Shown: positions 19,641 to 24,230 of the stretch, one piece after another
Position numbering within the stretch: position 1 is the stretch's first letter
How the letters are laid out: every line of letters starts with the position of its first letter
From: an uncultured Anaerolineae bacterium
GTDB taxonomy: Bacteria > Chloroflexota > Anaerolineae > JAADDB01
DNA length: 64,000 nucleotides
Assembly (NCBI GenBank): GCA_964413905.1
Contig: CAYPUG010000001.1
Coordinates: forward strand, 6,962-70,961
Direction: 5' to 3'
Made by a program: the position numbers and the translations under genes
The notes under the pieces: model-generated
What the model was told of the DNA's origin: nothing
The model's database searches: none
Seen by the model: only the letters and a program-made list of their open reading frames with translations

Positions 19641-22016
19641 ATGTGGAAGAAGAGCGTATGTCTTATCATTCTCTTGTGGGTTTTGACCGCGTGCCACTCA
19701 ACGGGCACACAGCCTTTAGCATCCCCCACATCTTTAACATCCCCTCTCCCCTCGCGACCGGCCCCCATTTCCCCATCCCCGCGCCTCTCCTACACCGAAC
19801 CGCCCGGCACGGCCGTGGCTCACCTTCCTTTGATGAGCCACCACAGCGCGGCCACGGCCACCCTGGAGTCCTCCCCTACGCTTCCCACGCCCACGAAACA
19901 TGCCCCCTCGCCAGCTCCCACCCATACCCCAACACCGCTCTTCTCGCGACGAACCCATATTCCTCTGGTATTCGGGAATCCTCCCCATCACGAAGAGGAG
20001 CCCCTAGTAGTGACAGGTCATCCCTTCGCGCTCATTGTGGACGCGTCGGCCTTCACTGCCCATCCCTGGGACGATCACGGGATATCCCGCTGGACAGCAC
20101 AACAATCGGTCATTCCGCGCGTGCTCCGGGACAGCCTGGCCCATGCCCGAATTGCCGTACAGCGATTGGGGGGAGAGGCCACAACCTGTGAAGGGAACAC
20201 CCAAACACTCATTACCATGCACCCCCTGCCCACCATCGACTGGACACAGATATGGGGGGGGCTCCAACCCACCGGAACCGTCCCTTTGGCCGAAGCCCTC
20301 TTGCAGGCCGCAAACGCCTTTCCGGCAGGAGTCCAACGGCCTATCTTGCTCATTTCTGCTGGAGAGGAGATATGTGGAGAAGATCCCTGCAATGCGGCTC
20401 GCGTGTTGGAACGCTCCGACGCAGATGTCACCGTGCACGTTGTGGACATCGGTGACGAGAACGAAGGACAATCCGTTTTACGTTGTATTGCCGAGGTCAC
20501 AGGCGGCACATACGCGCACGCAACCGGCCCCGATGACTTGGCGAGCGCTTTGCGTACGGCCATCCACCACGCGTTGGGGGGCCAACTCCGTGTGGAGGTG
20601 GTGGGTGTGAACGGACGTCCCCTCTTTCCTGTCGTCGTGGTGGGGCGAGGCGACGAAATCATCCGCACTTTTGACGCGTGGACCGATGCGGACCTGGCAG
20701 AAGGGACGTATACGGTGACGGTGGGCACTCCGTTACCCGGCATCTTCGAAAACGTGGTCATTCACCCAGGACGGCGGACCAAATTGCACATTCCGCTGGG
20801 GGAACTCCACGTGCGCCTGGTAGACACGCAACAGCGCCCCATTGCTGCCGAAATCAGCCTCTCGACGCCCCCCTTGGGGACGTTCTTTGGCAGTGAAGGG
20901 GAAAACATTATTGTGCCCCTGCCCACAGGATATTACACAGTCAGCGCATCCTTGGAAACGTCGCCGCCCCTAGCCTTCGCGCGCCATGTGCCCGTAGTGG
21001 TGGGTTCGGTGACCGAACGCACGGTACGGGTGCCGGTAGCGCGACTTCGGGTGGAACTCATCCACCGTGGCCAACCCGGCAGCGGGTTCATCACTCTATC
21101 CCGATGGGAAAACCCGGATGTCCAGATCGCGGGGGGATGGACAAACGGGGAGATGACGTTCCTGGTCCCCCAGGGATGGTATCAACTGGACATCGGTCAA
21201 TACGCGGAGCCAACCGACGCCCACGTTCTGATCCAACAACGCGTGGATGATCCCGTACACACGCCGGACATTCACTACATTCACCACGTAGACACGGGAA
21301 CCCTCCGAGTCCTGGACACCGCGTCCGACGGCGCATCGGTTTCCGGGTGGGTGCGGGTATATCCCGCGCGCCGGACTTCCCCCATCCTAGCCGAAGGCCC
21401 CATCCTCACCTCCTTCACCCTGCCTACCGGCATGTACGACGTTCAAGTTGTTGAGGAAAACGGGCGTTCTCTTTGGGCATGGGATATCGTGCTCCAACCC
21501 CAACAGCAGGTGGATCTGACCGTGCTACGGCCCCAAGCACGGGTGTGGATTCAAGCCACTACCCCGTGGGGAGAACCGCGGGTCGCCCACACGGTCCTTT
21601 ACCGGGAACCCGACCACACCCCCACGCTGGACGTGCACATCCCATGGCGGGCCGTCCTTCCCCCCGGCACGTACCAAGCGCAACTGGACGAATACAGTGC
21701 GGTCCCTCATACTACACTCTCCGAACCGTTCACCGTCCAAGACGGAGACACATACACACTGACGGGATCCCTCCCGCTGGCGTCACTCACCTTGGTCCCC
21801 ACCGACGTGGACGAGGTAGAAGTCACCATCTACGCCCAAGCCGATCCAACCACTCCCCTGGGAGGAGTACGCTCTGGGCTTCCCCACCTGCTTCTACCTG
21901 AGGGACATTATGCCTTCCACCTAAAAGATGTGGATAATCCGGAACGCTACGTGTGGGTGAGGGATGTTCGTCTGGCCGTAGGTGAACACCGGGAGGTTAT
22001 CGTTCACTTCCCCTGA
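19641..22016 (+). CDS. Lipoprotein with a Pro/Ser/Thr-rich linker, a von Willebrand factor A domain and repeated Ig-like/carboxypeptidase-regulatory-like beta-sandwich domains
   Basis: Lipobox LTAC. The VWA fold (ALIVDAS ... ILLISAGEE ... TVHVVDIGDE) is called from overall composition; the MIDAS DxSxS motif was not confirmed. Confidence 0.6.
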   Translation: MWKKSVCLIILLWVLTACHSTGTQPLASPTSLTSPLPSRPAPISPSPRLSYTEPPGTAVAHLPLMSHHSAATATLESSPTLPTPTKHAPSPAPTHTPTPLFSRRTHIPLVFGNPPHHEEEPLVVTGHPFALIVDASAFTAHPWDDHGISRWTAQQSVIPRVLRDSLAHARIAVQRLGGEATTCEGNTQTLITMHPLPTIDWTQIWGGLQPTGTVPLAEALLQAANAFPAGVQRPILLISAGEEICGEDPCNAARVLERSDADVTVHVVDIGDENEGQSVLRCIAEVTGGTYAHATGPDDLASALRTAIHHALGGQLRVEVVGVNGRPLFPVVVVGRGDEIIRTFDAWTDADLAEGTYTVTVGTPLPGIFENVVIHPGRRTKLHIPLGELHVRLVDTQQRPIAAEISLSTPPLGTFFGSEGENIIVPLPTGYYTVSASLETSPPLAFARHVPVVVGSVTERTVRVPVARLRVELIHRGQPGSGFITLSRWENPDVQIAGGWTNGEMTFLVPQGWYQLDIGQYAEPTDAHVLIQQRVDDPVHTPDIHYIHHVDTGTLRVLDTASDGASVSGWVRVYPARRTSPILAEGPILTSFTLPTGMYDVQVVEENGRSLWAWDIVLQPQQQVDLTVLRPQARVWIQATTPWGEPRVAHTVLYREPDHTPTLDVHIPWRAVLPPGTYQAQLDEYSAVPHTTLSEPFTVQDGDTYTLTGSLPLASLTLVPTDVDEVEVTIYAQADPTTPLGGVRSGLPHLLLPEGHYAFHLKDVDNPERYVWVRDVRLAVGEHREVIVHFP

Positions 22017-22077
22017 AGTGCGTTTAGATGGGTCCGTCAATCAGCACTTCGTTTCGAATGGAGACGGAGGTGGATCT

Positions 22078-22968
22078 ATGACACACTTACTGGTGGTTAT
22101 TCTAAATGATTTGCATGTCCTGCCCGATTTGCTGGACGCGTGGAAGCGCATTGGGGTTCCTGGTGTGACCCTGTGGAACAGCGTGGGAGGGTATCAAGCA
22201 GAAAATTGGCTACAAAAGATGGGGTTAGGAGGCCTAGGCCGTCTCCTAGGAGGCGAAAGCCAACAACGAACTCTCATTAGCCTTATCGATGACGACGACT
22301 TGTTAGAGCAGGCGATCGCCGAGGCCGACGAGATCGTCCAAGGCTTTGACCGTCCCCACAACGGTATTCTCTTTGTGCTCCCGGTGACCCGGGCTGTGGG
22401 ATTACGCAAGTGGACGGTGGAGGCCGAAGAGCAAGCGCGCCGAGAGGAGGAGGCCCGTACCGGTCTGCTTAAACGAGACCGGATGGCATATCAGGACCTG
22501 GTCGTGGCGGACATTATGGACGTGCTACGCTTGGATCCCGCGATTGTGTCCGCCGACGCCGCGGTAACCGACATCATCAAAACCATGCTCGCGCACCCGA
22601 ACGTGCAAGTGGCTTGTGTGGTCAATGAAGAGCAGCGGCTTGTGGGCGTGATTGATGTCCCCAGTCTCGCGGACGCCTTCCTCCTCACCGTGTTCCCCGA
22701 GGAGTTTATGAGCGCGGTTCAAGATGTGGCCGAAGCAGAGGAATTCGCGCGGCGGACACACATGCACCAAGCTTCGGATATCATGCGCGAGCCGGTGTAC
22801 GCTCACCTCAACGATTCGGTGCGCTCCGCCTTCCATACAATGCACCAAGCCAAATTGCCCGGCATTCCTGTGGTGGATGAGCAGTATCACGTGATCGGCT
22901 ACATTAACTTGCTGGAACTTATGGGCCTCTGCCTGGAATCCTCCATCCACCGAGGAGGGCCACAATGA
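22078..22968 (+). CDS. PII-like (GlnB-fold) N-terminal domain fused to a tandem CBS pair
   Basis: A beta-alpha-beta/T-loop/beta-alpha-beta pattern (LLVVILNDLHVLPDLLDAWKRIGVPGVTLWNSVGGYQ) followed by two CBS motifs. GGAGGTGGATCT Shine-Dalgarno. The 4-bp overlap with the next gene suggests coupling. Confidence 0.6.
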   Translation: MTHLLVVILNDLHVLPDLLDAWKRIGVPGVTLWNSVGGYQAENWLQKMGLGGLGRLLGGESQQRTLISLIDDDDLLEQAIAEADEIVQGFDRPHNGILFVLPVTRAVGLRKWTVEAEEQARREEEARTGLLKRDRMAYQDLVVADIMDVLRLDPAIVSADAAVTDIIKTMLAHPNVQVACVVNEEQRLVGVIDVPSLADAFLLTVFPEEFMSAVQDVAEAEEFARRTHMHQASDIMREPVYAHLNDSVRSAFHTMHQAKLPGIPVVDEQYHVIGYINLLELMGLCLESSIHRGGPQ

Positions 22969-24230
22969 ACGACGCGTGGATTGCCGCGGGTATCTTTCTC
23001 CTGACGTACGCGATGATCGTGAGCGAACGCGTGCCGCGCACCACCGCCGCCTTGGCCGGTGGCATGTTGATGATCCTCCTGGGCATTCTCCCCCAGGAAG
23101 AAGCGTTTCACGCGGTGGATCTGAACGTACTTTTCCTCCTAACGGGCATGATGGTCATTGCCCACCTGATGGGCGAAACCGGCTTTTTTCAGTGGTTGGC
23201 TGTCCACACGGTCCGCCTGAGCCAAGGCCGCCCCGTCCAGGTCATGGTGTTCATTGCGCTCATTACAGCCTTTGCGTCCGCATTCCTGGACAACGTAACG
23301 GTGGTGGTCCTCATTGCACCGGTAACATTGTACGTCGCCAGCACCTTAGGAGTCAGCCCTGTTCCTTTCCTCATCACGGAGGTGATGGCCTCCAACATCG
23401 GTGGGGCAACGACGCTCATCGGAGACCCACCGAATATTCTTATTGCCAGCCGAGCGAACATTGACTTTCTCCAGTTCCTCCTGAACATGGCACCGCCGGC
23501 TCTCCTCTCCCTGCTCGCTTATGTGGGCATCATGGTCGTCCAATTCCGGCACGCGCTTACCGTACCCGCGGAACGTCGACAGATGCTCATGCGCCTTAAG
23601 ACAGAGGGACTCATCACGAACAGAGCTCTGTTGGTGCAAACTCTCACCGTGCTGGCTGTGGTCATTGTGGGATTTCTCCTTCACGGCGTGCTCCACCTGG
23701 AGCCGGCCACCATTGCCCTTAGCGGCGCGACCTTGCTCCTGCTGTGGACAAAACGGGATCCGCACGCCATCTTTCAACATGTGGAATGGGCTACGTTGAT
23801 GTTCTTTGTAGGACTCTTCATCGCAGTGGAGGGGTTGGTCGCCACGGGGGTGATTGAACGTGTTGCCCACGCGCTGGCGCGCTTAACCTCCAGGAATGTA
23901 CGTATCACCACGTTCTTCATTCTGTGGTTCTCCGCGCTGGCCTCGGGAATCGTGGATAATATCCCCTATACCGCAACCATGCTCCCCATCGTGGAAACAC
24001 TGGGCCGGGTCATGCCTATCCGACCGTTGTGGTGGGCCCTCGCTCTGGGCGCGGATTTGGGGGGAAACTTGACCCTGGTGGGCGCTTCGGCCAATGTGGT
24101 AGTCGCCAGCATTGCTGAACGCAGTGGACACAAGTTAACGTTCGGCGAGTTTTTCCGCTACGGTCTGACAACCGTTACGGTCTCTTTGATTATCTCGTCC
24201 ATCTGGCTGTGGGTCATGTACCTCTCCTGA
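22965..24230 (+). CDS. ArsB/NhaD (CitMHS-type) family permease
   Basis: About 12 TM helices with a duplicated ion-transporter architecture. Confidence 0.7.
   Translation: MNDAWIAAGIFLLTYAMIVSERVPRTTAALAGGMLMILLGILPQEEAFHAVDLNVLFLLTGMMVIAHLMGETGFFQWLAVHTVRLSQGRPVQVMVFIALITAFASAFLDNVTVVVLIAPVTLYVASTLGVSPVPFLITEVMASNIGGATTLIGDPPNILIASRANIDFLQFLLNMAPPALLSLLAYVGIMVVQFRHALTVPAERRQMLMRLKTEGLITNRALLVQTLTVLAVVIVGFLLHGVLHLEPATIALSGATLLLLWTKRDPHAIFQHVEWATLMFFVGLFIAVEGLVATGVIERVAHALARLTSRNVRITTFFILWFSALASGIVDNIPYTATMLPIVETLGRVMPIRPLWWALALGADLGGNLTLVGASANVVVASIAERSGHKLTFGEFFRYGLTTVTVSLIISSIWLWVMYLS

Follow-up and report, generated by a model that had tools for sequence, protein, structure and literature searches.

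A 64-kb window of DNA from an uncultured Anaerolineae bacterium of the Chloroflexota (64,000 nucleotides of a single contig; 'the window' is this whole stretch) carries two overlapping genes on the + strand, one for a 296-aa regulator that joins an N-terminal PII-like domain to a C-terminal CBS pair (22078-22968, stop included) and one for a 421-aa permease of the ArsB/NhaD/CitMHS type, in the IT superfamily (22965-24230). The pairing of these two genes across genomes is far beyond chance. We consider it probable, if by no means secure, that the regulator is soluble and acts as a regulatory subunit of the permease with two modules, the CBS pair being the ancestral docking and sensing module and the PII-like domain a second input acquired later.

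The regulator open reading frame (ORF) begins with an ATG at 22078-22080 and ends with a TGA at 22966-22968, while the permease ATG is at 22965-22967. Read from the sequence, the two genes share the stop/start overlap ATGA (22965-22968, + strand), an arrangement of translational coupling. A Shine-Dalgarno-like GGAGG is found at 22066-22070 (+ strand), 7 nucleotides (nt) 5' of the regulator ATG, and another GGAGG, placed to serve the permease, lies within the last regulator codons (22954-22958, + strand). The regulator N-terminus, M-x-x-L-L-V-V-I-L, is the same in an alignment of 61 homologues, so we assign the start to the ATG at 22078. The first-pass annotation of this DNA had described the 296-aa ORF, its PII-like N-terminal domain, its two CBS motifs and its overlap with the permease ATG, and both the coordinates and the features were borne out.

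Conservation of the gene pair

We found 244 homologues of the regulator, nearly all of 288-324 aa; those with taxon names all come from Chloroflexota/Anaerolineae metagenome-assembled genomes (MAGs). Their only annotations are 'CBS domain-containing protein' and, at JGI, 'nitrogen regulatory protein P-II 1'. Keeping one genome per species left 79 loci, and in 74 of these (74/78 with room) a permease homologue that is 56-74% identical lies directly downstream on the same strand. Among the remaining five, one contig ends too early and four loci hold diverged orphan paralogues without a permease. The 64 pairs with called ORFs include 45 that overlap, by 4 nt (ATGA, 36 pairs), 1 nt (6) or 8 nt (3), and most of the apparent gaps among the 64 are artefacts of ATG-only start calling. 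The pair is found in overlap in ~100 Chloroflexota genomes and metagenome contigs, where the regulators are only 40-60% identical. The first-pass annotation had supposed a regulator acting on its neighbouring permease, and the near-invariable co-occurrence of the two genes leaves that idea standing.

A converse scan started from the permease, whose alignment was run against metagenomes and yielded 80 loci, from 60% down to 44% identity, that were examined by six-frame ORF profile searches. A full PII-CBS gene lies upstream at 21 of these loci (permease profile score 520-710), and at another 13 (score 545-608), plus 4 cut by contig ends, the upstream gene encodes a CBS pair only and ends at or overlaps the permease start; 16 loci have no room upstream. 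We built a neighbour-joining tree from 148 permeases. The 84 that are linked to PII-CBS genes all group in one clade, whose only other members are 3 permeases without upstream sequence and 2 start-call artefacts. Next to this clade, in a grade that also holds partner-less permeases, are the CBS-only-linked ones.

The CBS-only proteins, of 171-194 aa, have at least 654 members among the proteins searched; those with names come from Limnocylindria and other Chloroflexota. They share a VPEEFL insertion and a GY(I/V)DQLELL motif with the C-terminal half of the regulator, and we take them to be true orthologues of that half. On a 2.2-Mb contig one such gene overlaps a 422-aa ArsB/CitMHS gene by 4 nt. 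Since the sister-grade permeases are coupled to a CBS-only protein, the CBS half is the older partner, to which the PII-like domain was added later, and the PII domain is dispensable for the partnership. As judged from the sequences, the PII-CBS fusion has a single origin, with the PII-like domain added once. At one locus with a sister-grade permease coupled to a CBS-only protein (L174:6001-7793; the coupling is also seen in L126, L152, L120 and others), a Na_H_Exchanger-TrkA_N gene lies just upstream in divergent orientation.

Architecture of the regulator and class of the permease

The N-terminal PII-like domain comprises residues 1-112 (22078-22413, + strand), in the order b-a-b-[T-loop]-b-a-b. 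It falls short of the Pfam P-II cut-off of 25 bits, both in the full regulator (20.1 bits, E 8e-4, covering profile positions 9-100 of 102) and as the N-domain alone (21.5 bits), and weak P-II matches were obtained for 20 of 27 N-domains. We predicted its structure twice with AlphaFold, once as part of the full-length regulator with 61 homologues as input (predicted local distance difference test, pLDDT, 81.5) and once as residues 1-115 with 27 N-domains as input (pLDDT 76.8). Both models place a strand at residues 2-9, a helix at 12-25, a strand at 31-36, a low-confidence loop at 36-61, a strand at 62-70, a helix at 73-87 and a strand at 97-103. The predicted fold thereby has the core that defines the PII superfamily, a ferredoxin-like b-a-b-b-a-b arrangement in which a long T-loop connects beta2 to beta3 and a B-loop connects alpha2 to beta4. 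The comparison table for the N-domain lists Chlamydomonas PII (4ush) at 10.3, GlnB on the NrtBCD transporter (8wm7_E) at 10.0, the DUF3240 PII-like protein (3ce8) at 9.8, PEPE_1480 (3m05) at 9.5, SbtB (6mm2) at 9.4, and CutA, TM0021 and CPII at 8.3-8.8. Using hhalign, a profile of 40 family members matched GlnB/GlnK, whose sequences were entered by hand, with 92.6% probability and an E-value of 4.7e-7 over 93 columns. A fold that was not PII-like would have spoken against the first-pass annotation; the predicted one is PII-like, and the Gly-rich stretch to which it had drawn attention (QKMGLGGLGRLLGGES, residues 46-61) sits at the T-loop position, in the beta2-beta3 loop, of both models.

The beta2 motif G-x-x-G-x-T is retained (G26, G29, T31). 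The B-loop equivalent together with beta4 (residues 88-102, QGFDRPHNGILFVLP; 22339-22383, + strand) aligns to T83-V93 of GlnB, and the canonical B-loop T-G-x-x-G-D-G-K-I-F is replaced by the aligned segment F-D-R-P-H-N-G-I-L-F. G89, F90, P93, G96 and L98 are invariant in the 61 homologues, and P102 is invariant in the 27-sequence set and at least 90% conserved in the 61. The T-loop equivalent (residues 36-62, GGYQAENWLQKMGLGGLGRLLGGESQ; 22183-22263, + strand), which corresponds to the low-confidence beta2-beta3 loop, is Gly-rich and amphipathic; G37 never varies across the 61 homologues, in which conservation of W44, L45, G49 and L50 reaches 90% or more. It has no Y-R-G-[AS]-E-Y-type motif, that is, neither the Tyr51 uridylylation site nor the Ser49 phosphorylation site. 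We assign the N-domain, from its sequence and predicted fold, to the PII superfamily, yet not to canonical GlnB/GlnK, because the B-loop signature and the phosphate-binding residues K90 and R101 are not retained.

A charged and variable linker of low pLDDT (residues 113-139; 22414-22494, + strand), with a predicted helix at 114-131 and a length that differs among the 61 aligned homologues, leads to the CBS pair, or Bateman module (residues 140-291; 22495-22950, + strand). Here the evidence is strong: Pfam CBS matches in two stretches with 55.2 bits against a cut-off of 24 (8.9e-15), and the AlphaFold model has a pLDDT of 89-98 over residues 141-280. The nearest structures in the PDB are TM0935 (1o50, E 5.7e-23 with the family profile) and 4esy from Sphaerobacter, and Foldseek returned the same two (4esy, E 5e-11; 1o50, E 7.6e-10), followed by CBSX2 with AMP, MJ0100 with S-adenosylmethionine (SAM) or methylthioadenosine, OpuCA with cyclic di-AMP (c-di-AMP), MgtE, and CorC with ATP. 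The two CBS motifs reported in the first-pass annotation are thereby confirmed. An FPEEF insertion (P207, E208, E209) is conserved between CBS1 and CBS2, and the alignment of 61 homologues gives the ribose-contact motifs as G190-x-x-D193-x-x-S196 in CBS1 and G274-x-x-N277-x-x-E280 in CBS2. By its sequence, the CBS pair may possibly bind an adenosyl ligand. No solved structure spans both halves of the regulator among the Foldseek matches (TM-score normalised to query <=0.40). An anti-phage CBS protein was considered and rejected (NF053863, 21 bits against a cut-off of 260).

The permease matches two Pfam families over its full length, CitMHS (313.8 bits against 31.9; 1.8e-93) and ArsB (81.5 against 22.2; 1e-22), which agrees with the ArsB/NhaD/CitMHS class originally given to it. 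The closest PDB entries are ArsB (10tp, 4e-17) and VcINDY (1e-12), and a crude hydropathy scan gave many hydrophobic segments, where the first-pass annotation had proposed 12 TM. Functional models in NCBIfam all stay far under their equivalog cut-offs: MamN, the best, reaches 215.8 bits of 500, followed by ArsB (126.9/457), DASS (115/199) and NhaD (57/577.1). The permease resembles ArsB, NhaD and MamN in family and differs from them at the equivalog level, and clustering of the neighbouring genes revealed no ars-type family. On these two grounds arsenic resistance was rejected as unlikely. The family is very large: there are >8000 matches, and identity is 60% or higher for every one of the best 120, which are named 'ArsB/NhaD family transporter'.

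Genes of ion homeostasis are abundant near the pair in other genomes, among them CNNM/CorC (16 loci), P-type cation ATPases (7-8 loci), DedA and Usp. Na_H_Exchanger genes are near the pair at 11 of the 79 loci, or ~1.5 per 100 kb, a density that we presume to be an order of magnitude above the typical genome average. This abundance leads us to favour, with low confidence, a permease that carries a small inorganic ion or has a cation/proton function; the genes that flank the pair in the window give no hint of the substrate.

Standalone PII-like relatives and their T-loops

A search of 1.84 billion representative proteins with the N-domain profile gave 654 matches at E<=1e-3, of which 197 reach E<=1e-10. 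Ranking under the PII-CBS proteins are many standalone proteins, most of ~112-126 aa, in which the whole domain is matched. Some relatives pass the Pfam P-II threshold of 25 bits (P0182 with 36.4, P0156 with 27.5, P0160 with 26.8, and also P0161); the standalone proteins are labelled 'nitrogen regulatory protein PII' (automatically, at JGI) or 'hypothetical protein'. Genomic context was seen for 21 standalone copies. In 16 cases a Na_H_Exchanger gene precedes the copy by 0-73 nt or overlaps it; such copies, of 112-135 aa, include L084:1538-1912, L085:721-1074, L086:2921-3265, L020:3620-3982, L148:1272-1646 and others. Four copies (L148b, P0167, P0176 and P0196, the last two obtained after the count of 21) instead lie just upstream of a Na_Ca_ex gene, and the coordinates of the Na_Ca_ex-linked copies are L088:2015-2353, L171:3001-3378, L173:403-768 and L148:5295-5651. 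The regulator is one of a wider group of PII-like proteins, hitherto undescribed, whose genes adjoin those of cation antiporters.

The T-loops of these proteins fall into classes that follow the partner gene. With a CPA partner (Na_H_Exchanger), 15 of 16 loops read R-(D/E)-D-x-P-L-x-P-S-(L/I/M). With a CaCA partner (Na_Ca_ex), all four are hydrophobic and Gly-rich, for example MFMGFGGAFG and AMMRFGGMFG. The PII-CBS proteins, with their ArsB/NhaD partner, have W-L-x-(R/K)-x-G-L-G-G-L-x-R-L, conserved across the clade. As a test of prediction, P0176 and P0196 were picked solely by their CaCA-type loop, and both (2/2) turned out to have a Na_Ca_ex gene directly downstream. The best available evidence points to the T-loop as a partner-recognition element, although this evidence is correlative and comes from few independent lineages. 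The rule that links T-loop class to partner class is directly testable.

The four orphan PII-CBS paralogues without an adjacent permease (L016:4335-5255, L035:6001-6939, L046:6001-6939 and L062:3689-4636) have an altered T-loop, in which W44 is lost in three of the four; their linker is longer and contains N-L-x-x-W as a conserved motif. One of them, L035, adjoins a TetR-like gene in a MAG that also has a normal pair (L072). All three partner types occur together in L148:71-6649, where a single strand encodes, in order, Na_H_Exchanger, PII-like protein, Na_H_Exchanger, PII-CBS protein, ArsB/NhaD permease, PII-like protein and Na_Ca_ex.

The order of genes in L086:766-3265 is prmC, Na_H_Exchanger, PII-like, sua5, low-molecular-weight phosphatase, rpiB and upp, an order similar to that in Bacillota; on account of this resemblance, the standalone family is suggested not to be confined to Chloroflexota. 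In one 422-aa protein (P0217) a PrmC-type methyltransferase is fused to the PII-like domain, which may be an artefact of gene calling.

Proposed mechanism and relation to known systems

In the mechanism that we favour, the two genes would be translated as a coupled pair, with the regulator made in fixed proportion to the permease. The CBS pair, as the older partner of this permease lineage, would dock on the cytoplasmic face of the permease and transmit the binding of a small ligand, as do the CBS pairs of MgtE, CorC/CNNM and OpuA/OpuC. The PII-like domain would have been fused to it later, in one Chloroflexota lineage, after recruitment from the small standalone PII-like proteins that are paired with CPA and CaCA exchanger genes, and its long, conserved and partner-specific T-loop would add a second input or a second contact. 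The net outcome would be post-translational gating of an ion permease within cation/pH homeostasis. We infer physical binding and a T-loop plug, and likewise whether the regulator inhibits or activates, what its ligand and the permease substrate are, and how it oligomerises.

Several observations weigh against a two-module regulatory subunit. The main problem is one of symmetry: PII proteins are trimers, whereas CBS modules assemble as dimers, and so do IT-superfamily and CPA transporters. In the converse scan, 26 loci (score 489-578) had no detectable partner upstream, so the related permeases there can work alone, and no fusion of regulator and permease into one polypeptide occurs among the matches listed. 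Only six positions of the permease are specific to the PII-CBS-linked clade (E71, G86, L216, W261, M350 and S387), among which no obvious docking loop is apparent; we rejected these positions as a guide to a docking site, being so few and lacking a reliable topology. The relative orientation of the two regulator domains is uncertain in the model (predicted template modelling score 0.52). The ligands are also hard to read from either half. In canonical PII, K90, R101 and R103 (numbering of E. coli GlnB) hold the phosphates of ATP or ADP; in the N-domain the equivalent of K90 is I or L, that of R101 is the invariant G108, and that of R103 varies. With K90 and R101 not retained, the ligand of the N-domain cannot be inferred by PII rules. 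The usual ribose-binding Thr and Asp (G-h-h-T-x-x-D) are substituted in both CBS motifs, so nucleotide sensing by the CBS pair is not assured either.

The strongest rival, possible though in our judgement doubtful, is a plug of the GlnK-AmtB or SbtB-SbtA type, in which the PII T-loop inserts into a cytoplasmic cavity of the permease and blocks it while the CBS pair only tunes this through its ligand. The loop is suited to such a role in being long, flexible and, at the five positions named above, strongly conserved in the permease-linked clade; it also forms a class of its own, unlike those of the CPA-linked and CaCA-linked relatives, and its W44 is lost in orphan paralogues. However, sister permeases with a CBS partner only indicate a partnership older than the PII domain and independent of it, and the mismatch of trimer and dimer confronts a plug as well. 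The first-pass annotation had interpreted the pair in this way, as a T-loop plug joined to adenylate or SAM sensing. Its fold, CBS pair, permease class and pairing stand, whereas the plug and the sensing that it inferred from them are qualified by the CBS-only pairs, by the loss of K90 and R101 and by the substitutions at the CBS ribose positions.

We think it unlikely that the regulator is instead a cross-talk hub, whose CBS half serves the permease while its PII half serves a CPA exchanger or a membrane protein encoded upstream, with both transports coordinated. Standalone relatives of the N-domain do lie downstream of Na_H_Exchanger genes, L148 has the order Na_H_Exchanger, PII-CBS, permease, and a conserved membrane protein is encoded directly upstream of PII-CBS, on the same strand, at 28 of the 79 loci. 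Yet a recognisable Na_H_Exchanger gene is directly upstream in only 1 of the 92 PII-CBS loci with room, which also led us to reject such an exchanger, as a rule, as a general third partner. The window has neither an exchanger nor the upstream membrane protein, and the PII-CBS T-loop is unlike the CPA-linked class and is conserved with or without the upstream membrane gene. Less probable again is co-expression alone, with the PII-CBS protein sensing nucleotides or energy in general and acting on a soluble target: such targets are well documented for CBS-pair and PII-like proteins that stand alone (e.g. DarA/DarB, CBSX), four orphan paralogues exist and clade-specific permease positions are few, but near-obligate adjacency and stop/start overlap have been kept across ~100 diverged loci, the fusion-linked permeases are monophyletic, the same pairing logic returns for CBS-only, CPA and CaCA partners, and soluble-target regulators rarely keep such a pattern of adjacency, so this conservation makes co-expression without contact unlikely.

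A broader proposal, which we put forward only tentatively, is that the PII-like family as a whole uses partner-specific T-loops to bind and gate secondary cation transporters, which have three or more folds that are unrelated (CPA, CaCA and IT). If true, PII-type plug regulation would extend beyond carbon and nitrogen transporters and beyond trimeric ones, and the combination of a trimer-prone PII domain with a dimer-prone CBS pair would make a symmetry-mismatched hub that could tie together several permease dimers or two types of transporter.

Few signalling proteins are as widespread as PII proteins, whose known transporter targets are importers of nitrogen and carbon (AmtB, Nrt, Urt, SbtA). 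Precedents for the present pair are GlnK-AmtB, SbtB-SbtA and the CBS-regulated transporters (PMC10710835), and the PII-transporter mechanism has been reviewed as seemingly limited to transporters that work as trimers (PMC10710835). The likeness to GlnK-AmtB and SbtB-SbtA lies in the pairing of a regulator gene with a transporter gene and in a conserved, partner-specific T-loop. The differences are that the partner here is an IT-superfamily ArsB/NhaD permease rather than Amt or SbtA, with an expected symmetry that is dimeric rather than trimeric (PMC10710835), and that the regulator domain is fused to a CBS pair, lacks the PII B-loop signature, the K90/R101 ligands and the Tyr51/Ser49 motif, and remains under the Pfam P-II threshold. 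Unlike SbtB, it also has no C-terminal redox loop (R-loop), beta4 being followed by the linker and the CBS pair. With the CBS modules of MgtE, CorC/CNNM, OpuA/OpuCA and ClC the regulator shares a bona fide CBS pair and an association with an ion transporter, but it is not a fused domain, having a gene of its own upstream of the permease gene, and it has the FPEEF insertion (as in TM0935/1o50 and 4esy), the substituted ribose Thr/Asp and the additional PII-like domain.

Another parallel in genomic context is PII-NG, whose genes, according to PMC7726332, which cites Sant'Anna et al. 2009, cluster with czcABC proton/cation antiporter genes; there too a PII-family gene is linked to a cation/proton antiporter. 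That paper describes PII-NG as proteobacterial, with a conserved PF00543 domain and tripartite resistance-nodulation-division (RND) pumps as partners. The present family is set apart by that description, being divergent, mostly at or under the PF00543 threshold, found in Chloroflexota and, by synteny, Bacillota, and partnered by single-gene CPA, CaCA or IT-superfamily transporters. Both domain types of the regulator are known c-di-AMP receptor folds, PII-like in DarA/PstA and CBS in DarB/CbpB/OpuCA, and c-di-AMP controls cation/proton antiporters and osmolyte uptake. The regulator, however, has no above-threshold match to DarA/PstA or CbpB (NF041630, 22.5 bits against a cut-off of 125), and c-di-AMP as its ligand might at most serve as a lead.

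What is already known comprises PII-like plugs, CBS sensors and PII-NG beside czcABC (PMC7726332). The PII-CBS architecture, its pairing with an ArsB/NhaD permease and CPA or CaCA partners of PII-like proteins were not found in the PDB or in a literature search of incomplete coverage. The first-pass annotation had called the architecture uncharacterised, with which the literature search and the lack of a solved full-length match agree. If the pairs are real complexes, PII-like regulation would reach cation/pH homeostasis and dimeric secondary transporters, and two sensor modules, PII-like and CBS, would be assembled in modular fashion on one permease. They would also give functional handles for proteins annotated in Chloroflexota, an abundant and poorly studied phylum, as 'ArsB/NhaD family transporter' or 'CBS domain-containing protein', or mis-named 'nitrogen regulatory protein PII'.

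The membrane protein encoded upstream of PII-CBS at other loci (e.g. L012:4785-5975, L052:4506-5570 and 26 other loci) is polytopic and 355-397 aa long, without a match in Pfam or the PDB. A divergent Na+/H+ exchanger was considered for it and rejected (hhalign, 0.4% probability); possibly it forms a third part of the system. In the window, the 61-nt gap 5' of the regulator contained no promoter-like site in a promoter/terminator scan and no RNA family in Rfam, which returned no family at gathering score across the whole 64 kb. On the other side of this gap a 791-aa protein is encoded (19641-22016, + strand), with an N-terminus that by eye is hydrophobic and signal-peptide-like; it matches no family above threshold, its sole match being a weak CarboxypepD_reg-like stretch. 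The same arrangement is repeated in L080 and L081, the two longest contigs with an identical regulator. On the 3' side of the permease, genes for a metallo-beta-lactamase (MBL)-fold hydrolase and mfd are convergent with the pair.

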